A stretch of DNA of 62,597 nt, filler included. It is 8 parts of 8 records of this genome, joined end to end, with 100 filler letters (N's around TTAATTAATTAA, not from the genome) between each part and the next. Parts side by side here need not be neighbours in the genome. Positions count along the whole stretch, not along the records: positions 31,150 to 37,508 come from SRR31147125_53426; 7 more parts are not named here. The stretch is one strand, 5' to 3'. The notes under the pieces are model-generated. The model did no database searches, had not been told where the DNA came from, and saw only the letters and a list, made by a program, of their open reading frames with translations. Positions within the stretch are counted from its first letter, which is position 1. Each line of letters opens with the position of its first letter. Of this stretch, positions 14,502-54,320 are shown piece after piece. Both the position numbers and the translations under genes were made by a program.

Positions 14502-14601
14502 NNNNNNNNNNNNNNNNNNNNNNNNNNNNNNNNNNNNNNNNNNNNTTAATTAATTAANNNNNNNNNNNNNNNNNNNNNNNNNNNNNNNNNNNNNNNNNNN
14601 N
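14502..14601. other. Artificial contig spacer
   Basis: N-run, TTAATTAATTAA, N-run (100 nt). Confidence 0.99.
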
Positions 14602-21867: not shown

Positions 21868-21967
21868 NNNNNNNNNNNNNNNNNNNNNNNNNNNNNNNNN
21901 NNNNNNNNNNNTTAATTAATTAANNNNNNNNNNNNNNNNNNNNNNNNNNNNNNNNNNNNNNNNNNNN
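21868..21967. other. Artificial contig spacer
   Basis: N-run with TTAATTAATTAA. Confidence 0.99.
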
Positions 21968-28876: not shown

Positions 28877-29521
28877 ATGAAATTGATCATCTCTATTACC
28901 ACCGCATTTTTACTGGCTTTGGGCATGAATGGCGCCCACGCCGCCACCGCCGTATTTGAAGGCAAGATTACCCAGGAAAGCTATGATGCATTCGACACCT
29001 CCAAAAGCCGGGTCTCCGTTGATTATTGGCAGTTCAGCGTGGCCGCTCCGGGCGATGTGACCATTGATGTCCTCTCCTGGGAAAAGGATCCAAACAATTG
29101 GTCCTGGCGGGACGTCAACCAGGACGGGGAGGAATCCTTTATCGATTCCTCCATCCATGTATTCAAAAGCGGTCTTGGTGTGGACAATCTATTTGCCTCC
29201 AATGACGACGGCGGTAAAAAAGGCCGGGACGACGGGAGCATCCGGGGCAATGATTCATTTATTTCAACCCACTTTGAGGCAGGAGACTATATCATCGCCA
29301 TATCCAGCTGCGGCTATGCGCCCTATTTTTCCGCCCTTGAAGCCGTCAACGGCATGAATGATAAGGCCATTATCCCCTATGCCTCAGGCGAAGGCGCCCA
29401 CGGCGACTATCGGATCACCGTGTCCGGCAATCTGGCCGCCGTACCCGTACCCGGGGCATTCTGGCTGCTGGGGACAGGGCTTTTGGGATTTGCAGGATTG
29501 AATCGGAAACTTCGGGACTGA
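28877..29521 (+). CDS. VPxP-CTERM protein with a DVUA0089/PPC-like domain
   Basis: Signal peptide; VDYWQF..VTIDVLSWE..ASNDDG..DSFI..AGDYIIAIS; VPVPGAFWLLGTGL..RK. Confidence 0.85.
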   Translation: MKLIISITTAFLLALGMNGAHAATAVFEGKITQESYDAFDTSKSRVSVDYWQFSVAAPGDVTIDVLSWEKDPNNWSWRDVNQDGEESFIDSSIHVFKSGLGVDNLFASNDDGGKKGRDDGSIRGNDSFISTHFEAGDYIIAISSCGYAPYFSALEAVNGMNDKAIIPYASGEGAHGDYRITVSGNLAAVPVPGAFWLLGTGLLGFAGLNRKLRD

Positions 29522-29542: not shown

Positions 29543-31049
29543 ATGAAAATGAAAGAGAATGATACTGATCAGGTCCGGCCGGACAAAATCGCCTTCGGCA
29601 CAGCCGGAGGGGTTGCCTACAGGACCCTGATCGCCGCAATGGCCGCCGCCCTGATTATTTCAGGATCAGCCGGGGCCGGCCAGACTAAAAAAACCGGGCC
29701 GGCCGAGGATCTGAAAGCCGATGAAACCACCTATATCCTCTCCGTGGAAAATACCATGGGAAGATCGGCATTGAGCCGGGCCCTGGGTGCTGAAAAAAAC
29801 CTGGGGACCCGGCGGTTTAAAACCCTGTCCCAATTCACGGGCAGGCACTATTACCTCATGAAAAAAGACCCGGAAACCCGGGGGCTTGAAAATTTGGACG
29901 CAGGGCATCCCGGCATCAGGGTTTTTCCCAATGTTTACAGGCGTCTTGAAAACACCCTGCCCGATGATGGGGAATTTGGGGCCCAATGGTGCCATTCCAA
30001 CCCTGAAAGCCCGGGGACCGATATGGCCTCGGACACGGCCTGGGACATTACCACGGGCTCAAAAGAGGCGGTTGTGGCGGTCCTGGATTCAGGCGTGGAT
30101 TACACCCACCCCGACCTTGCCCCCAATATATGGAAAAACAGAAACGAAATCCCGGACAATAAAATTGATGATGACGGAAACGGGTATGTAGACGATATCT
30201 TTGGCATCGATACCGGGGACAATGACAGCGACCCCATGGATTATGACGGCCACGGCACCCATTGCGCCGGCATCATCGGGGCTGTGGGTGACAACAACAT
30301 TGGGGTGGCAGGGGTCAACTGGGACTGCAGTATCATGGCCGTTAAAGGCTTTGAAGAGGCAAGCGATCTCATGTCCACGGCCATGGAGCTTGAAGCCATT
30401 GACTACCTGCTCTATATGAAAACCTATGAAAATGTCAATCTTGTGGCGGTGAATGCATCTTTCGGGTACAGGGGAAAGCCCGACACCCTGGAGCAGGAGG
30501 CCATTGAAGCCCTGGGGCGGGCAGGCATCCTCTTTATGGCCGCGGCCGGGAACAAGTCCAGAAACAATGACCTGGGCGGGGATGTTTCCCACTACCCCAG
30601 TTCCTACCCCCTGGACAATATCATTGCTGTGGCCGCAACGGACCGGGAAGGGAAACTGGCATGGTTTTCAAATTTCGGCCATAAACGTGTGGATATCGCC
30701 GCCCCGGGCCAGGACATCCTCAGTACGGTCCAGCACAGTATTTCCTATGAACCGGACCGGGATACGGCCCTGTTTTACGACGACCTGGAAACAGGTGAGG
30801 CCAATTTCACCATGGAAGGCACCTGGGCCGTGACCCGGGAGAATTCCATCAGCCCCTTTTACGCCCTGTCGGACAGCCCTGAGGGACGGTACGGGGCGGA
30901 TACGGACGATGCCGTCACCAGCCGCGCCATTGATCTGTCCGGGACGAACACCGAACTGGCCCTGGGTTTTTATGCCCTCCACGATATTGAAGAAGCGGGC
31001 ACGGCCTTTTTCGATGCCCTTGAAACCTGGTTTCTGGCGCCAGGCACCC
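29543..31049 (+). CDS. Second secreted S8 subtilase, 3' partial
   Basis: AVLDSGVDY, HGTHCAGII, AAAGN, FSNFG..VDIAAPG; same inserted domain begins; cut by the contig end. Confidence 0.9.
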
Positions 31050-31149
31050 NNNNNNNNNNNNNNNNNNNNNNNNNNNNNNNNNNNNNNNNNNNNTTAATTA
31101 ATTAANNNNNNNNNNNNNNNNNNNNNNNNNNNNNNNNNNNNNNNNNNNN
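31050..31149. other. Artificial contig spacer
   Basis: N-run with TTAATTAATTAA. Confidence 0.99.
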
Positions 31150-32042
31150 AAAAGAAGGTAGCTAGTTTCCTCAATATCCAATGCATCAGCTACCCAAATC
31201 CCTAGAAGAATTGACAATAATACAACCAATACTCCTCCTCCAAATGAATAGAGTAAAAACTTTTCCCATTTCCCTGTAACTAAAAAACATATTAATTCAT
31301 CTAATTTTTCTGAAACATTTAAATCTGATGCTCTATTTTGAAACTCCGTTAAAAGTTTTAATGAAAATAACTTCATCGTTTTTATAAATGTTATAAAATA
31401 GGAAAAAACTATAGAGAAAAATATAAATATTCCAATTTTTCCACTGTGAAGCTGCATTATTTTAGTTATTTTATTTGGATGATTTATAAAATTTTCTAAA
31501 TAATTTCTTAACAAAGCTTCCACATCATTTCCCCACGTTTTAGCAGTATGTCTAATCTCATATTTTATTCTATTATCAAATGATAAATCTGATAATATGC
31601 TATTAAGTTTTAGTTTTGAAAGCGAAGTTCTTCTGCTAATAAAACTCACTGTTATTTCCTGTTTTTCTGGCGCTGTTTTACCTTCGAAAAAGATTAAATA
31701 TATCCAGGTTATGTCTAATCTAATGCAAATTTTCTTTCCAATTTCCCTAAAAGCTAAAAAACTCTCCAAATCGGATAATTCCTTTGCGCTTCCATTCGAA
31801 AAATACATTTTTATATTGCAACTTACCAATTTCCCCTTATTTTGTTGCTTAACTCTTTGATCCAGCAACTCATTCAAATCATATATACCTTCTTTTTGAA
31901 TTTCAAATCCTCCAGAGAATTGACCAGTTATGCTTTCTGGCTTCCCAAGTAGCTTTCCAATAAAATCTTTAAATTCATCTTCATTAAAAGGTAATTGAAT
32001 ATAACCACTATTGCTTAACTTTTTCTCATCAGTCTTCCCCAT
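31150..32042 (-). CDS. Hypothetical membrane protein, 3' partial
   Basis: GGGAGG ribosome-binding site; ~200-aa soluble N-terminus then two hydrophobic segments. Confidence 0.7.
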
Positions 32043-32169
32043 CTTTTTTCCTCCCTAACCCTCGCAGTGTCTTCTATAGTGTTTTCTTTGTTCTATTTTA
32101 CCATATTTTTTATGTGTTTAAAATAAAAAAAGAACCTGCTTTAAGCAAGTTCTCTAAAACTAATAACAA

Positions 32170-32715
32170 TTATATTTTTAAGCCTGTAAAGCCAAACATA
32201 AGCATTGAAATTACACTAATAGTTATATAATAAACAAAATCAGGATTTAATTTCTCTGATTTTGTTTTAATCCTATCATATAGATTCGAAAGAACAATGA
32301 AGCTCACAAAAATAAAAACTCCGTTTAAGATTCCAAATATAATCATAGATAATAGACTCAAGTCCACATTATATATTATTGTACTTAAAAATATTACATT
32401 TAAGATTAGGTATCTCTTTTGAGCCGAGAGTTCTTTAAAAAACAATGAAAAGACAAATACTAACACCATTGTTATTAATGAACTAATCAACAAAGAAAAC
32501 GTCTCTAAGTTAAAAGGCCTTATAAGCAATAAGTTACTATAGCTAAATATTAAACTCGTTAAAATAAATATTATACTTGTAAAAACAGAGAATCTAAAAA
32601 TCTTTTTTGGCGAATTCTCCATGACTGTTGGTAGTTCTGCTCCAAAAAAATACCTAAATAGAAAATTGTTTAAAAGTAAAAGATAAAAAAACGATTTAAC
32701 TATTTCTCTCAACAT
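32170..32715 (-). CDS. Divergent RnfA-like membrane subunit
   Basis: NNFL..FFG N-terminus and SMLMFGFTGL C-terminus resemble RnfA; operon position; conserved cysteines absent. Confidence 0.65.
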   Translation of the reverse strand: MLREIVKSFFYLLLLNNFLFRYFFGAELPTVMENSPKKIFRFSVFTSIIFILTSLIFSYSNLLLIRPFNLETFSLLISSLITMVLVFVFSLFFKELSAQKRYLILNVIFLSTIIYNVDLSLLSMIIFGILNGVFIFVSFIVLSNLYDRIKTKSEKLNPDFVYYITISVISMLMFGFTGLKI

Positions 32716-33235
32716 GCTTTACCTCCTTACCTTTTATGTGATTAAAAAGCTCTAGAATTATAGTCGCCACGAATAGACCTCCACCTGTATAATTAAGCAT
32801 TAAAATTCCTTCATAATTTTTAATTATTTCAAATGAAAACAGTTCGCCAAAAGCAACAAATTCTCTTAATGCTGCAATAATTATAAGTAACAAAATTGTT
32901 TCTGATATATATTTTATTTTACATAGCTTTCCACATATTTTCACTCTTTCAACAACTATGTAAACACTATAGAACATTATCGCCGCATATTTCACAGGTA
33001 AATACCATGAAAAATTAAAATAACCAAGAAGCAAACTAACAAGCGTTACTTGTAGACTAAAAATAAAAAATCTAATAAAAAATAGGTTTTCATTTTTTAG
33101 TATTTTCTTAAATAAAAAGCTTGTAAATAAAAGTATGGAACTAATTAAACTTGTAAGAACTGCTGATTTTAAATCTTTTGTTCCCAAAACTAATACTAAA
33201 AAAGGGTAAAATAGATATACTGATTGATTAGACAT
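32696..33235 (-). CDS. Divergent RnfE-like membrane subunit
   Basis: IAALREFVAFGELF and GGGLF resemble the RnfE IRE..G and PGAF motifs; operon position. Confidence 0.65.
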   Translation of the reverse strand: MSNQSVYLFYPFLVLVLGTKDLKSAVLTSLISSILLFTSFLFKKILKNENLFFIRFFIFSLQVTLVSLLLGYFNFSWYLPVKYAAIMFYSVYIVVERVKICGKLCKIKYISETILLLIIIAALREFVAFGELFSFEIIKNYEGILMLNYTGGGLFVATIILELFNHIKGKEVKHVERNS

Positions 33236-34854
33236 TATTTATCACCTGTCTTCTCTTCACTCTCATTTTCAACAAAGCCTTCATCTGAAAACTCCTTTTC
33301 AACAAAACTCTCTTCCTCAAATCCTTCATCTTCGAATTCTTCAGAATCAAATTCTTCAAAATCTCCAAAGTCAATGTCTAATAGTACAAACTCATAACTT
33401 TCAAGAACTGTCATTATCTCTTTGTAAGCATTTAAGAAAGTAAAGGTAGCACCAGTATAGGCATCGACAGATTTATCAAACTCATAAGTTAGATCTCTTT
33501 CTCGCCAAAGACTTTGCCACTCTTCGCTTTGAATCTGAGATCCTAATCCTAGAGTCTCATTTTGCTCTAATACTTTCAAACCAGTTATAGCTCCTTCTAA
33601 ATTAAGCCCCATAACAATTTTAACCATCTCTGTAGAGTAACCCTTACTCTCAAACACAACAATGTGACCTGCCAATTCTCCATCCTTATTCACTGGTTGG
33701 AAATAATATCCCTCTTCACTCATAATTGCTTCACTCAGTTCACCGCTTTCAAAACCTTTACCAAAAAGATATTCAAGTTCCTTTGCGCTCTCTTCTGCTT
33801 GTTTGTTAAGTTTATAATCCTCTATCATTTCATCAACTCTAATAATAGTAAAACTTAATAAAAATATTGATATAAGAGTTGCAATTGATATTCCAATTTT
33901 TTTCATATTATATTTCCCTCCAAAACTCCTAGGCATAGTATATTTATTTATCGTAGGTACGAATATATTGGCTAATAAAATTGCATAAGTTACACCCTCT
34001 GGTTGAGATGTATATTTTCTAATGAAAAAAGTCATAAATCCAATAAACGACGAAAAAATAACTACTCCTACATTAGTATAAGGAGATGTTGCCATGTCCG
34101 TTACCATATAAACAGCTGCAAAACAAACTCCTCCTCCCAATAGATATATAGCAGGAGATTCTCCTGTTATTGCATACATCAACGTTAAACTTAGAAGCAT
34201 CACTATTGGTACTTTTAATTTTATATGTCCCTTTAATTTTAAATATATTGCTCCTAAAACAATGGCTACAAAGGAAACTTCGCCCATCGACCTAATTATT
34301 TGATCATTCCCATACAACAGCCCCCTTAAAAACATGGCTTTTCCACCAAACATTTCATAAACGAAATCCGTTCCTGTATACTTAATTAAAGGGAATATAC
34401 TAGCTCCTCCCTCTCCATCAATTTGCGTGTAATTATACACATACTGCGGATAGGAGATCATTACAATTAACCTCCCTACTAACGCAGGGTTAAATATATT
34501 TTTTCCTACTCCTCCAAATAACATTTTACCAACTAAGATTGACATAGCTGAACCAAATGCTACAACTTTATATGGTACTGTAACCGGTAGAGTTAATGTA
34601 AATAAAAGCGCCGTTACTATTCCACTTCCATCTAGGCACTGATTTTCTATTCCAAATAATTTTGAGGATACTGCCTCAGTTAACACAGCAAATATTATAG
34701 CTGTTATCAAGAGTAACATCACTCTAAAACCATATATTACTATGCTCATTATAATAACAGGAGCAAGCGCTAGAACAACGTCATACATTGTGCTTTCCAT
34801 TGTTAACTTCGTTCTAATATGTGGTGAAACTCCAACTACTTTCTTGTTAGACAT
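33235..34854 (-). CDS. rnfD: RnfD-RnfG fusion protein with an acidic tail
   Basis: SPHIR, KMLFGGVGKNIFNPALVGR, MVTDMATSP, EGVTYAILLAN (RnfD) followed in frame by GY..ETLGLG..DAYTGAT (RnfG FMN-binding domain). Confidence 0.88.
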   Translation of the reverse strand: MSNKKVVGVSPHIRTKLTMESTMYDVVLALAPVIIMSIVIYGFRVMLLLITAIIFAVLTEAVSSKLFGIENQCLDGSGIVTALLFTLTLPVTVPYKVVAFGSAMSILVGKMLFGGVGKNIFNPALVGRLIVMISYPQYVYNYTQIDGEGGASIFPLIKYTGTDFVYEMFGGKAMFLRGLLYGNDQIIRSMGEVSFVAIVLGAIYLKLKGHIKLKVPIVMLLSLTLMYAITGESPAIYLLGGGVCFAAVYMVTDMATSPYTNVGVVIFSSFIGFMTFFIRKYTSQPEGVTYAILLANIFVPTINKYTMPRSFGGKYNMKKIGISIATLISIFLLSFTIIRVDEMIEDYKLNKQAEESAKELEYLFGKGFESGELSEAIMSEEGYYFQPVNKDGELAGHIVVFESKGYSTEMVKIVMGLNLEGAITGLKVLEQNETLGLGSQIQSEEWQSLWRERDLTYEFDKSVDAYTGATFTFLNAYKEIMTVLESYEFVLLDIDFGDFEEFDSEEFEDEGFEEESFVEKEFSDEGFVENESEEKTGDK

Positions 34855-34945
34855 ACTACCTCCCAAATATAAAAGCTTTGTATAATAGATTGTCATTATT
34901 TATTCTATTACATAATGCTCTCAATATATAGTTTAAAATTTATAT

Positions 34946-36232
34946 TTACTCCTTAAATGTAAAACCGTACCAAATTGCTTCCATCAGAGGTTGATTAACT
35001 GGACAGGCAAATTGACAACTACTACATCTAATACATTTCTTCAAATCAAAATCTAACATCTCTTTTGTTCTATCGTTTTTGAACAACTCTACATATTTCA
35101 GAGGTACAAGTCCCATTGGGCAGACATCAAGACATTTACCACATGATATACACTCTTTGCTTTTATATGGTTTAGTTTCTTTCTCTGATAATGCCAAAAC
35201 TCCGTTTGTTCCCTTTATCACCACTTCTTTTTCATCTGATATCGCAAAACCCATCATTGGCCCGCCTAATATCAATTTATATATATTATCTCTCTTTACT
35301 TCGCAATGATTTAATAAATCTTCTACAGAAGTTCCAAGTTTAACCTTTAAGTTCTTAGGTTTAGAAACCGCTCCTCCAGATACAGTAACAATCCTCTCAA
35401 TTAAAGGTTTATTATACAAGAGCGCTTCATAAATCGCTACACAGGTTGCAGGATTTAATACAATCACCCCATAATCTATTGGAAGACCTGTCATCTCTTT
35501 TCCAAATAAACTTTGAAGTAGCTGCTTTTCGCCACCTTGCGGGTACATTGTATGCAGCTTTTCTATCTTTATTTCATGGTCATGACCAACCAACGCTTTT
35601 AGTTTATCAATGGCTTCTTTTTTATTATCCTCTATCCCTATAATGATATTAGGTATTTTATATAGTTTTTTTATAAGTTTTATACCCTTAAGTAAATTAT
35701 CTGTACTCTCAATTAAAAGCCTATTATCAGCATTCAAATAAGGTTCACACTCAGCAGCATTTATTACCAAATGCTCTATCTTTTGGTTTCCTGGGTTTTC
35801 CATCTTTCGATAAGTTGGAAACATCCCTCCTCCCATCCCGGATATTCCTGCCTCCCGAATTATAGTAAGAAACTCATTTTTACTCATTTTTTCTATATTT
35901 TTTCTTTCGTGATAATCTACATGTTTATAATGTTTATCATTTTTTATAAGCACACCCATTGTGTAGTTACCCACCCGATTAAATCTCTTCTCAATTTTTT
36001 CTACATTTCCCGAGATACTAGAGTGTATCCAAGGGGCGTTTTCTGATTTTGCAATAACTTGCCCTGCTTTTACATAATCCCCCTCTTCTATACAAAGCTC
36101 AGCTTCCACTCCAACGTGTTGTCTCAGTGGTATAAATACCTGATCAAAATCTAAAAACTCTTCCACATTTAGGTTTTCCGTTTGCCATTTATTATCTGGA
36201 GGATGAACCCCTCCTCTAAACTTTTTAAACAT
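34946..36232 (-). CDS. rnfC: Rnf complex subunit C
   Basis: GGVHP, GMGGGMFPT, NAAECEPY, YPQGGEKQL, GGPMMG, two CxxCxxCxxxCP motifs. Confidence 0.93.
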   Translation of the reverse strand: MFKKFRGGVHPPDNKWQTENLNVEEFLDFDQVFIPLRQHVGVEAELCIEEGDYVKAGQVIAKSENAPWIHSSISGNVEKIEKRFNRVGNYTMGVLIKNDKHYKHVDYHERKNIEKMSKNEFLTIIREAGISGMGGGMFPTYRKMENPGNQKIEHLVINAAECEPYLNADNRLLIESTDNLLKGIKLIKKLYKIPNIIIGIEDNKKEAIDKLKALVGHDHEIKIEKLHTMYPQGGEKQLLQSLFGKEMTGLPIDYGVIVLNPATCVAIYEALLYNKPLIERIVTVSGGAVSKPKNLKVKLGTSVEDLLNHCEVKRDNIYKLILGGPMMGFAISDEKEVVIKGTNGVLALSEKETKPYKSKECISCGKCLDVCPMGLVPLKYVELFKNDRTKEMLDFDLKKCIRCSSCQFACPVNQPLMEAIWYGFTFKE

Positions 36233-36532
36233 AAATCCTCCCAATTTGCGTCTTCACTCAACTTATGTTTCTTTACTTTATTAGTCAACAACTTCATGAT
36301 TTATCATAACATAATTTTTATAAAAAAATCAAACAAATCACAATATTATATACTTAAAAATTAAAACTTTCCCTCCTTTACTAGTTAATTAAACTCTTTG
36401 CTTTGAGTATATCAACAAATAATTCTTTATAATCATATAATACTATGTTAATATAAGTTGGTAAAAATTAGATGAAAATTTTATTTTTAATAAATACAGT
36501 TTTTAATTCAAAAAACATATTAAGGAGTTTTT

Positions 36533-37390
36533 ATGAAGTATAATAGATTAGGAAAATCAAACTTAGAAGTATCTGTTTTGGGTTTTGGATGTTGGGCAAG
36601 TGCAAAACATGGCTGGAAAGATGTTAATCAAGATGAAGCAATAAAAACGCTTGAAACGGGTTATGAAATGGGGATTAATTTTTTCGATACTGCTCCAATA
36701 TATGGCTTTGGAAAATCCGAGGAGATCTTAGGTGAACTTTTTGCAAGTGTTAGAAAAAAGATTTATTTAGCAACAAAGGTTGGATTAAGATGGAATGATT
36801 TTGGAAAAGTAACACATAATTTAAAAAGAGATAGCATTATGTATGAAGTGGAAAATAGTTTAAACAGATTAAAAACTGATTATATAGATCTTTATCAAGT
36901 TCATTGGCCTGATAAAGATACAACTATTGAGGAAACTTTTGATACTTTGATTGAATTAAAAAGACAAGGTGTCATAAAAAATATTGGCGTTTCAAATTTT
37001 TCAATGGAGCTCATTGAAAAGGTTCAGGGTGAAATTATCTCTATCCAAGAACAATATAACCTTTTGCAAAATAGTGCTGAAAAAGATATCCTACCATTTT
37101 GCGAAGAAAACAACATAGGTTTCATAGCTTACAGTCCTTTAGCACAAGGCCTTTTGTCAGGTAAAGTTAAAAAGGGATATAAATTTGGAAAGGGCGACAT
37201 TAGAAGATTTAATCCACTATTTAAAGATCAGGAACTATTTGATAAAATCAATGAAATTGAAAAGCCACTAATTGACTCAGCTATTCAATACATCCTAAAA
37301 AATAAGCCAGTAAGCTCCATGATTATTAGTATGACAAAGGAGAACCACCTATTAAACAATCTGAAGATAGTTAATGAATTCTATAAATAG
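36533..37390 (+). CDS. Aldo/keto reductase
   Basis: LGFGCW, FFDTAPIYG, ATKVG, DYIDLYQVHWPD, IGVSNF, YSPLAQG. Confidence 0.93.
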   Translation: MKYNRLGKSNLEVSVLGFGCWASAKHGWKDVNQDEAIKTLETGYEMGINFFDTAPIYGFGKSEEILGELFASVRKKIYLATKVGLRWNDFGKVTHNLKRDSIMYEVENSLNRLKTDYIDLYQVHWPDKDTTIEETFDTLIELKRQGVIKNIGVSNFSMELIEKVQGEIISIQEQYNLLQNSAEKDILPFCEENNIGFIAYSPLAQGLLSGKVKKGYKFGKGDIRRFNPLFKDQELFDKINEIEKPLIDSAIQYILKNKPVSSMIISMTKENHLLNNLKIVNEFYK

Positions 37391-37451
37391 AAAAACTATA
37401 TATCAAGTGAAGTTTATAAGGTTCTTGTATTTTTATAAAAATGTACAAAAA

Positions 37452-37484
37452 AATAACAGAACCCGTATGCCAGGTTCTGTTATT
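37452..37484. terminator. Probable bidirectional terminator hairpin
   Basis: AATAACAGAACC..GGTTCTGTTATT inverted repeat. Confidence 0.6.
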
Positions 37485-37508
37485 AAAGAGAAGTTAATAA
37501 AGGGATTA

Positions 37509-37608
37509 NNNNNNNNNNNNNNNNNNNNNNNNNNNNNNNNNNNNNNNNNNNNTTAATTAATTAANNNNNNNNNNNNNNNNNNNNNNNNNNNNNNNNNNNN
37601 NNNNNNNN
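37509..37608. other. Artificial contig spacer
   Basis: N-run with TTAATTAATTAA. Confidence 0.99.
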
Positions 37609-43616: not shown

Positions 43617-43716
43617 NNNNNNNNNNNNNNNNNNNNNNNNNNNNNNNNNNNNNNNNNNNNTTAATTAATTAANNNNNNNNNNNNNNNNNNNNNNNNNNNN
43701 NNNNNNNNNNNNNNNN
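43617..43716. other. Artificial contig spacer
   Basis: N-run with TTAATTAATTAA. Confidence 0.99.
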
Positions 43717-48838: not shown

Positions 48839-48938
48839 NNNNNNNNNNNNNNNNNNNNNNNNNNNNNNNNNNNNNNNNNNNNTTAATTAATTAANNNNNN
48901 NNNNNNNNNNNNNNNNNNNNNNNNNNNNNNNNNNNNNN
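48839..48938. other. Artificial contig spacer
   Basis: N-run with TTAATTAATTAA. Confidence 0.99.
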
Positions 48939-54220: not shown

Positions 54221-54320
54221 NNNNNNNNNNNNNNNNNNNNNNNNNNNNNNNNNNNNNNNNNNNNTTAATTAATTAANNNNNNNNNNNNNNNNNNNNNNNN
54301 NNNNNNNNNNNNNNNNNNNN
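54221..54320. other. Artificial contig spacer
   Basis: N-run with TTAATTAATTAA. Confidence 0.99.

Follow-up and report, generated by a model that had tools for sequence, protein, structure and literature searches.

A conserved Rnf-derived gene cluster without rnfB or the membrane-centre cysteines: a possible conduit from NADH to the periplasm

What can an Rnf complex still do if it has neither RnfB nor any of the cysteines that hold its membrane iron–sulphur (Fe-S) centre? A 62,597-base stretch of DNA (hereafter ‘the window’) raises this question through a cluster of four closely packed, intact genes on its minus strand, which encode a homolog of RnfC (RnfC'), a fusion of RnfD and RnfG homologs (RnfD::RnfG', or D::G') and divergent relatives of RnfE (E') and RnfA (A'). 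This cluster represents a conserved, monophyletic family of Rnf-derived paralogs (RnfC', RnfD::RnfG', RnfE' and RnfA'). To judge from its sequence, the complex is very probably not a ferredoxin:NAD+ oxidoreductase, and the reading favoured here, at odds slightly better than even, is that it would form an NADH-linked conduit via RnfC', RnfD' and RnfG' to a periplasmic redox partner.

An earlier note on this DNA, made by a model from the sequence, had given the order as rnfC, rnfD::rnfG, an rnfE-like and an rnfA-like gene, then a hairpin and an unrelated gene, with no rnfB in the operon, and analysis of open reading frames (ORFs) and hairpins gives the same picture. The rnfC' gene (34946..36232, −) encodes 428 amino acids (aa) from its ATG, the ORF beginning at a TTG at 36244; the rnfD::rnfG' fusion (33235..34896, −) spans 553 aa, with Met15, at 34854, as its probable start, judged from a 14-residue offset relative to the related fusions P0002 and P0003. 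E' (32696..33235, −; 179 aa) overlaps the fusion stop with its start by 1 nt, and A' (32170..32715, −; 181 aa) overlaps E' by 20 nt. A terminator-like hairpin (32129..32155, −; 12 pairs closing a loop of 3, and then a T run) lies 14 nt past the A' stop and marks the end of the operon, and beyond it is a 314-aa ORF without a match in the family libraries. The cluster's own contig occupies positions 31150–37508 (6359 bp, GC content 0.305), and neither an rnfB in the operon, which is closed by the hairpin and the unrelated ORF after A', nor an NqrF-type gene was found on it. The window as a whole consists of eight contigs with GC contents of 0.305–0.573, joined by spacers of the form N44-TTAATTAATTAA-N44, and, given this spread, adjoining segments are probably from different source organisms; because the contigs are unrelated, the absence of rnfB holds for the operon on its 6359-bp contig and not for the genome of the organism.

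In Acetobacterium woodii, RnfA supplies C25 and C113, and RnfE C25 and C108, as ligands of the membrane [2Fe-2S] centre (Kumar 2025, PMC11889175). The window retains 0/4 of these canonical cysteines. A' contains no cysteine and no histidine: in PDB and profile alignments Glu27 (within FFGAELP; codon 32635..32637, −) stands at the first RnfA cluster cysteine, C25 of A. woodii, and valine (within LILNVIF) occupies the second cluster site, C113 itself landing, in the PDB profile alignment, in an insertion absent from A'. Across the family the first-cysteine column is acidic in 6/9 A' proteins, and acidic also in P0127 and P0128, with asparagine in genomes G104 and G105 and phenylalanine in G098. 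The first motif region of E' is deleted or unalignable, the E' profile aligning only from RnfE residue 35, past C25. At the second site hhalign sets the RnfE cysteine against the tyrosine of MFYSVY and the conserved arginine of the RnfE ‘GRAE’ motif against the arginine of VVER, and in the PDB profile alignment C108 lands in an insertion relative to E'. The earlier note had described an A-like protein devoid of cysteine, with FFGAELP and LILNVIF at the motif sites, and an E-like protein with cysteine at neither motif position and two cysteines later; the alignments agree on each point, and the loss of all four cluster cysteines is borne out.

The two later cysteines of E', C101 and C105 (KICGKLCK; 32921..32935, −), lie 9 and 13 residues past the second cluster site in the profile alignment. 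The structural model of E' has residues 78–100 as one unbroken helix (TM4), C101–K106 as a loop, and residues 107–129 as a helix carrying an REF motif, the counterpart of ‘IREV’ in TM5, so that the C101/C105 loop would correspond to the cytoplasmic TM4b–TM5 loop rather than to the membrane centre. In the same model this surface loop, with its CGKLC pair, would look towards the RnfB docking site of the canonical complex. Apart from the window, only P0122, a 94%-identical fragment, was found to have the pair; the six other E' proteins lack it, that of G098 being wholly free of cysteine, and the idea that ICGKLC might supply alternative ligands was thus not upheld.

This pattern is beyond chance. 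Both cluster cysteines were present in 0/9 family A' and 0/7 family E' proteins, against 82/82 canonical RnfA controls (36/36, 28/28 and 18/18 in three sets) and, in the first two sets, 36/37 and 28/28 canonical RnfE controls, the single miss being an N-terminally short ORF. An RnfB-like ORF followed rnfA in 34/37, 28/28 and 16/18 of the control loci.

The divergence of A' and E' takes them below ordinary detection: A' scores 16.5 bits against PF02508 (cut-off 23.8), and E' has no Pfam match, its nearest being an NqrD model at an expectation value (E) of only 0.026. Profiles built solely from family members (nine A' and seven E' sequences, no canonical ones) nonetheless aligned by hhalign with canonical RnfA (probability 98.2%, E 4.4e-14, 181 columns) and canonical RnfE (94.9%, E 4.7e-8, 133 columns). 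Against PDB sequences the A' profile matched 7zc6_A (Clostridium tetanomorphum RnfA, 1.7e-15), 9eri_A (A. woodii RnfA, 5.4e-15) and NqrE (3.3e-7), and the E' profile matched 9eri_E (A. woodii RnfE, 1.7e-8) and C. tetanomorphum RnfE (1.7e-4). AlphaFold models (predicted local distance difference test score, pLDDT, 81.8 for A' and 76.5 for E') retrieved RnfA/NqrE chains as the top 7 Foldseek matches of A' in PDB (template modelling score up to 0.76) and RnfE/NqrD chains as the top 11 of E' (up to 0.73), with match probability collapsing thereafter in both cases. On these comparisons of sequence and predicted fold, A' and E' are genuine RnfA and RnfE homologs. A test of E'–A' pairing lent weak support, with a score of 0.49 against 0.00 for the best of three controls, contact agreement of at least 87% and partner pLDDT of at least 66 in the pairing runs; the pairing mark was reached by 51/78 solved complexes and 2/108 mismatched pairs, and scores of 0.60 or less comprised only 5/78 solved complexes but all 4 passing mismatches of 180. 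Similar complexes have been solved, so the pass may reflect memory of them.

The remaining two proteins keep the motifs of the NADH-to-RnfG branch. RnfC' matches TIGR01945 at 481.6 bits (cut-off 245.95, E 1.7e-144), with domain matches to Complex1_51K (2.4e-41), RnfC_N (2.3e-26) and Fer4_7 (1.4e-10), and its best score against an NqrA model, 74.3 bits, falls short of the cut-off of 450. It is the subunit that binds NADH and flavin mononucleotide (FMN) and carries two CxxCxxCxxxCP 4Fe-4S motifs, CISCGKCLDVCP and CIRCSSCQFACP, in keeping with the earlier statement that RnfC retains both 4Fe-4S motifs and its flavin/NADH motifs. The fusion consists of an RnfD membrane domain (PF03116, 5.4e-82, residues 21–326; TIGR01946, 231.8 bits; A. 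woodii RnfD, 9eri_D, 1.4e-47 by PDB profile alignment), one linker transmembrane helix, a periplasmic FMN_bind domain (PF04205, 3.2e-8, residues 424–487) and an acidic tail. It carries PF03116 and PF04205 only, without PF00175, and its match to the RnfG model TIGR01947 (1.7e-11) lies under the cut-off of 102. The riboflavin-ligand positions N123 and D249 of A. woodii RnfD are kept, as the asparagine of NPAL and the aspartate of TD.

Both flavinylation sites can be predicted. The motif recognised is D-x-x-[S/T]-G-A-[S/T], with glycine tolerated at position 4 (PMC12052999), and DGEGGAS in the RnfD domain, using the tolerated glycine, and DAYTGAT (residues 478–484) in the RnfG domain both satisfy it. 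The predicted covalent FMN sites are accordingly Ser166 (34399..34401, −), which aligns with the last threonine of A. woodii ‘TTAT’, taken as flavinylated there from the definition of the ApbE motif and not from the structure paper, and, by motif match, Thr484 (33445..33447, −). The junction between the two domains retains the former start of RnfG, a basic stretch ending in MKK followed by a single hydrophobic helix; a simple read-through fusion of this kind would place the G domain outside the membrane, as in canonical Rnf, and we infer this topology from sequence.

The acidic, Phe-rich C-terminal tail of the window's fusion (about residues 505–553, 33238..33384, −; ending EEKTGDK) has no flavinylation motif. 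By contrast, the tails of 7/10 family D::G' proteins contain between one and three extra flavinylation-type motifs (three in G097 and L067; two in G001, G098, P0007 and G104; one in G105; none in the window, P0002 or P0003), of the types D-G-E-G-G-A-[ST], D-x-E-A-G-A-[ST] and D-Y-K-S-G-A-T. The genes concerned are L048:6244-7971, L001:7998-9635, L045:9109-10731, L046:6771-8543, L047:5024-6706, L067:6659-8347 and P0007. One example pattern is DGEGGAT followed by D/S-T/S-E-W, in a tail that is probably disordered. The seven-residue motif suffices for ApbE and works best at a protein terminus (PMC12052999), so the tails of those seven relatives are plausible carriers of extra covalent flavins. 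The tails of the window, P0002 and P0003, likewise acidic and Phe-rich, end in (E/D)EKTGD(K/A) or KNTGDV, endings in which the flavinylation motif may survive in degenerate form. ApbE is encoded once, away from the cluster, in each of 5/5 relatives' genomes checked.

The window's cluster belongs to the family by its place in the fusion clade, its gene order, its lack of cysteine at the four sites and the absence of an adjacent rnfB. Word-index searches recovered six other proteins with RnfD and FMN_bind domains among the 120 matches listed (193 significant, 7998 scored), one of them annotated as Ilyobacter polytropus RnfD; with A' and with E' they found a single relative apiece. The Ilyobacter locus reads metK, rnfC' (438 aa), rnfD::G' (545 aa), a 171-aa gene, a 178-aa gene and ftsY-pta-ackA, the cluster itself spanning L048:4938-9000, or about 605.9–610.0 kb on G097:C1. 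With the Ilyobacter A' as query, 190 Fusobacteriota genomes yielded strong orthologs in five (G001 and G097–G100) and weaker second matches in G104 and G105, which proved to belong to the same four-gene cluster; the cluster is therefore present in at least 7/190 of these genomes, including the I. polytropus chromosome. It also occurs, followed by lon, on the metagenome contig L067 (27% GC). The rnfB-less four-gene order is complete in G001, G097, G098, G104, G105 and L067, the G099 and G100 loci being covered over their 3' half only, and rnfB is next to the cluster in none of the six complete loci. Homologs of the variant, close and distant, thus lack both the cysteines and an adjacent rnfB; their retention in close homologs would, by the earlier note, have refuted its reading. 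Genome and metagenome contig searches returned no close relative of the window's fusion protein, and the matches of its RnfC' among genome contigs were all canonical RnfC proteins of no more than 40% identity.

An exhaustive A' profile search through 1.84 billion representatives returned just 8 proteins at E ≤ 1e-3, with the first cysteine missing in 8/8 and both missing in 6/8. A lead from clusters of 181–186-aa proteins, commonest in Spirochaetota, that this phylum might also carry A' was not confirmed: the best six A' profile matches in 251 Spirochaetota genomes scored 62.6–65.1 bits, in frames of 193–201 aa (true A' orthologs score 225–373 bits with a single-protein query), and a crude motif check gave an answer in 3/7 loci, each with both canonical cysteine motifs.

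In a tree of RnfD domains (72 rows: 10 fusions, P0119, canonical Ilyobacter RnfD, all of P0008–P0049 and every fourth of P0050–P0118), the ten fusions form one clade with a Shimodaira–Hasegawa-like approximate likelihood ratio test (SH-aLRT) support of 100 and four sublineages, the window grouping with P0002 and P0003. The seven RnfC' proteins likewise form one clade (38 rows, SH-aLRT 98), beside canonical Fusobacteriota RnfC. From these RnfD and RnfC trees the organism of the window would lie near Fusobacteriota and is probably a diderm relative of that phylum.

A second, canonical rnf set, its RnfA and RnfE retaining their cysteines, was found elsewhere in 6/6 variant-bearing genomes checked (G100 lay outside this check), a co-occurrence that the earlier note had proposed to test. 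G001 encodes a full rnfCDGEAB (RnfA C28 and C116, RnfE C27 and C110, RnfB of 334 aa) and is the genome in which canonical rnfB was confirmed; an unfused RnfD accompanies a canonical RnfE/RnfA pair, scored at over 200 bits, in each of G097, G098, G099, G104 and G105. Pfam detects only the canonical A/E pair in variant-bearing genomes and misses A' and E'. A third set, of Rnf or Nqr type, lies on another replicon or contig in G097 (I. polytropus, G097:C2:66216-68916) and G099 (G099:C3:70828-73528), with a PF02508 pair at 172–207 bits and an RnfD/NqrB at about 265 bits.

Selection has maintained all four genes in the Ilyobacter clade. Their frames are intact in every locus seen, and the ratio of non-synonymous to synonymous substitution (dN/dS; Nei–Gojobori, Ilyobacter-type genomes, three pairs with dS 0.29–0.66) was 0.095–0.125 for A', 0.115–0.167 for E', 0.076–0.108 for D::G' (3' half only) and 0.074 for C' (dS near 1). 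Purifying selection thus acts on A' and E' in this clade. The argument from intact frames against simple decay is strengthened by these values (0.07–0.17 over the cluster), and neutral evolution of A/E, which the earlier note had allowed for, was not seen (0.10–0.17 in this clade). Within the window lineage E' shows 4 synonymous changes and 2 that are conservative (A→V, V→I), and D::G' shows 8 synonymous and 4 non-synonymous changes, all 4 of the latter in the acidic tail, which is thin evidence but consistent with constraint.

Neither the fusion nor the loss of cysteine is confined to this family. The proposal that D–G fusion goes together with Cys-less A/E and absence of rnfB stands within the family, and fails as a general rule: three canonical operons in which rnfB is present and A/E keep their cysteines contain independent D::G fusions of 521–560 aa (L115:9221-10903, L116:9215-10897 and L118:2447-4012), and such fusions are therefore not diagnostic. 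P0119, a 710-aa fusion with three FMN_bind-type motifs, also falls outside the window's clade. Conversely, a second rnfB-less, Cys-less cluster has unfused genes. P0124, one of the eight A' profile matches, sits in a metagenome-assembled genome labelled Erysipelotrichaceae (G191; L066:1-6028 with L049:1-1692), in the order 370-aa protein, apbE, rnfC, rnfD, 409-aa rnfG, E* and A* without cysteines, NusG_II and Hpre_diP_synt_I, with no rnfB. Among 29 loci from 301 genomes of the same order, 28 were canonical (all cysteines, rnfB next) and one, G401 (L097:2220-9812), was rnfB-less and Cys-less with apbE; in the two clusters the first protein is 360–370 aa, without a Pfam match, and RnfG 409–420 aa. 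NfnAB-like genes lie downstream in G401. Both Cys-less families join one polytomy in the RnfC tree, the Bacillota type on a branch of length 1.55, and RnfB and the four cysteines may have been lost more than once, in a Fusobacteriota type and a Bacillota type.

How might such a complex work? With the four ligands and rnfB absent, the branch from ferredoxin through RnfB and the [2Fe-2S] centre to RnfG would be cut, and this is the ground for doubting ferredoxin:NAD+ oxidoreductase activity. The motifs of the NADH-to-G branch are intact, so the complex most likely ties the cytoplasmic NADH/NAD+ pool to a periplasmic redox partner. Electrons would pass from NADH to the FMN and two 4Fe-4S clusters of RnfC', then to the riboflavin site of RnfD' and the covalent FMN at Ser166, and then to the covalent FMN at Thr484 in the G domain tethered on the periplasmic side. 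Most relatives would add one to three tail flavins to this chain; the window's tail has no such motif. A' and E' would be kept as a membrane module packing against RnfD' and the helix of the G domain, and might be an ion path, given how often a buried carboxylate stands in for the first cysteine. A conduit from NADH to the outside, as the earlier note had proposed, is thus the best-supported reading, its outward direction, its acceptor and a scaffold-only role for A/E being conjectural parts of it.

Several observations weigh against this reading. The AlphaFold2 alignments contained canonical RnfA and RnfE sequences, which biases the A' and E' models. The tail of the window itself has 0 extra flavinylation motifs. 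No conserved gene for a periplasmic partner lies beside the cluster, whose flanks are housekeeping genes that depend on lineage (metK and ftsY-pta-ackA in the Ilyobacter type, HPF and rplU-prp-rpmA-obg-miaA in G104 and G105). The strong conservation of A' and E' suggests more than a passive scaffold, and the dN/dS values on which it is based come from the Ilyobacter clade, the window lineage offering only 18 differences, from contigs of depth 2–5 in two runs. Finally, the second RnfE site is alanine (LIVAFAIIT...MFAC) in the RnfE of 11/18 Desulfobacterales-type operons (L106:11344-11964, on a Desulfopila sp. chromosome, and L102–L105, L107, L108, L111, L114, L117 and L121), 9/11 of which have rnfB, none being detected in L107 and L111. 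These operons may be a natural three-Cys Rnf or use a different ligand, and an alanine-site RnfE beside rnfB means that one missing ligand alone is not proof of a dead branch; the window, however, misses all four. The RnfA ORFs of these alanine-site loci are 309–323 aa long, that of L106 having about 125 extra residues before the RnfA core. As regards the flanks, G098 alone has, between metK and rnfC', a 153-aa ORF (L045:12197-12658, −) that matches FMN_bind weakly (E 6.9e-4, under the cut-off), and G105 a 143-aa ORF without a family match at the same place (L047:3117-3548).

The selective constraint on A' and E' could be explained otherwise, if these subunits formed an alternating-access path for Na+ or H+ in which a carboxylate of the Glu27 type replaces the charge of the reduced cluster, electron transfer being coupled to, or driven by, the gradient. 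Purifying selection on A'/E' equal to that on C' and D::G', the acidic first-cysteine column (6/9 A' proteins, plus P0127 and P0128) and the course of the Na+ path of canonical Rnf, described as running through RnfA/E beside the cluster (PMC11889175), all speak for such coupling. It is nevertheless unlikely as an account of the window, where the RnfE ion pair R67 and E115 is replaced by asparagine and lysine in E' (hhalign) and the counterpart of RnfA E88 is serine, while in the family the carboxylate itself gives way to asparagine in G104 and G105 and to phenylalanine in G098. The same chain of cofactors might also run backwards, taking electrons from a donor in the periplasm via the G-domain flavin to reduce cytoplasmic NAD+, as canonical Rnf is reversible (PMC12052999) and sequence does not fix the direction of flow. 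Inward flow against the membrane potential to low-potential NAD+ would, however, require a strong donor or energy, no donor gene is linked to the cluster in the flanks examined, and the flavinylated partial Nqr/Rnf systems described so far are read as outward conduits in the account consulted (PMC8238504), which together render this direction improbable.

The two other explanations deny the complex a new function. One would have it still be a ferredoxin:NAD+ Rnf that borrows RnfB from the canonical operon and holds its metal by other ligands, C101/C105 and carboxylates. A canonical RnfB is encoded elsewhere in relatives, the E' of the window does have a CxxxC pair, and Desulfobacterales-type operons, if functional, work one RnfE cysteine short; but with no cysteine or histidine in A', no cysteine in the E' of G098, TM4 of E' modelled as an unbroken helix, and a C101/C105 pair confined to the window and P0122, 9 and 13 residues off the site and in a surface loop of the model, this is very improbable. 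The other, a decaying duplicate without a function of its own, could account for the divergence of A' and E' beyond Pfam detection and is scarcely credible beside four frames that are undamaged wherever the locus was seen, in four deep sublineages, a dN/dS of 0.07–0.17 and the retention of overlapping start and stop codons. No RNA data set was found to contain the stretch, a result that counts neither for nor against decay. The conduit from NADH to a periplasmic partner is therefore retained as the preferred reading. A broader picture, which we offer tentatively as possible rather than probable, would join it to the other observations: an Rnf without its Fe-S bridge would be a distinct enzyme class and a periplasmic flavin wire in diderm anaerobes, with hopping along tail flavins to soluble or outer-membrane acceptors in most members and a carboxylate cation path through A'/E' that balances or couples charge, and would be a living analogue of the rnfB-less intermediate between Rnf and Na+-NQR.

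The rest of the window bears less on this question. An aldo-keto reductase gene flanks the cluster, and the spacers between contigs lie at 14502-14601, 21868-21967, 31050-31149, 37509-37608, 43617-43716, 48839-48938 and 54221-54320. Another contig encodes a 214-aa secreted protein (28877-29521, +) whose C-terminal end, VPVPGAFWLLGTGLLGFAGLNRK, we take to resemble a PEP-CTERM sorting signal, adjoined by a large subtilase-like ORF (29543-31105, +).

The membrane [2Fe-2S] centre is central to the present model of Na+ pumping (PMC11889175), and a conserved A/E fold that lacks it is a natural test of what the A/E module does besides carrying electrons. If the conduit is real, it adds an extracytosolic electron-transfer route in Fusobacteriota-like anaerobes, and since I. 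polytropus is a cultured member the electron route of the family is testable. Public annotation labels the fusion as an ordinary ‘RnfABCDGE type electron transport complex subunit D’, so that metabolic reconstructions from metagenome genomes may miscount such clusters as ferredoxin:NAD+ oxidoreductases. The family also exemplifies an rnf duplicate minus rnfB, a step postulated for the origin of Na+-NQR (PMC4014512).

Compared with known systems, the cluster is a seemingly undescribed variant, although the idea of a partial, one-way Nqr/Rnf is already in print. The full-text literature searched, main texts rather than supplementary tables (e.g. PMC8238504 file 1), describes no Cys-less RnfA/E, no such four-gene cluster and no flavinylation motifs in RnfG tails, and in a 2025 RNF/NQR review the words ‘fused’, ‘fusion’, ‘Fusobacter’ and ‘Ilyobacter’ do not occur. 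Canonical Rnf (A. woodii 9eri, C. tetanomorphum 7zc6) has the same C, D, G, E and A homologs in the same order, and its RnfC NADH/FMN and 4Fe-4S motifs, riboflavin ligands and both flavinylation motifs recur in the window, from which it differs in that the window has no rnfB, has lost the four cysteines, has D and G fused with an acidic tail, and has A' and E' under the Pfam threshold. Na+-NQR is likewise an Rnf derivative without RnfB, and its B, C, D and E subunits are homologous to those of the window; its proposed origin is by duplication of rnf, loss of rnfB and recruitment of NqrF (Reyes-Prieto 2014, PMC4014512). It is described, however, as retaining the NqrD/E cluster (PMC11889175), the ligands of which are gone here, and as taking in NADH through NqrF, with an NqrA devoid of cofactors, whereas the window keeps the cofactor motifs of RnfC' and has no NqrF. 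The second Cys-less cluster, in G191 and G401, resembles that of the window in lacking rnfB and cysteine at the four sites and in keeping RnfC, RnfD and RnfG, and differs in its separate RnfD and RnfG genes, its adjacent apbE and the separate long branch of its RnfC.

Nearest in proposed function are the two-subunit ‘NQR/RNF-like’ systems (Meheust 2021, PMC8238504; Huang 2024, PMC11334425), reported mainly from Actinobacteria and the candidate phyla radiation, in which a single electron path, proposed to be one-way, takes NAD(P)H electrons to an FMN domain outside the cytosol, much as is suggested here. As portrayed in these reports, they fuse RnfD/NqrB to an NqrF-type PF00175 domain, are without the RnfD flavinylation site and without RnfC, A or E, whereas the fusion of the window has no PF00175, keeps the RnfD site and is accompanied by RnfC', A' and E'. 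Clusters with multi-flavinylated RnfG (Meheust 2021, PMC8238504) have extra periplasmic flavins that are read as a branch to outside acceptors, as might be the role of the tails of this family; those clusters are defined by RnfB and, by that account, carry the extra flavins in repeated FMN_bind domains, while here they would sit in an acidic tail and rnfB is absent. P0119, with its three FMN_bind-type motifs, is to be placed with those clusters. Flavin-based extracellular electron transfer in Listeria (Ndh2, PplA and FmnB/ApbE, as summarised in PMC8238504) follows a similar logic, delivering NADH electrons to outside proteins flavinylated by ApbE, through membrane machinery, Ndh2 and quinone, that is unrelated to RnfC' and RnfD'.

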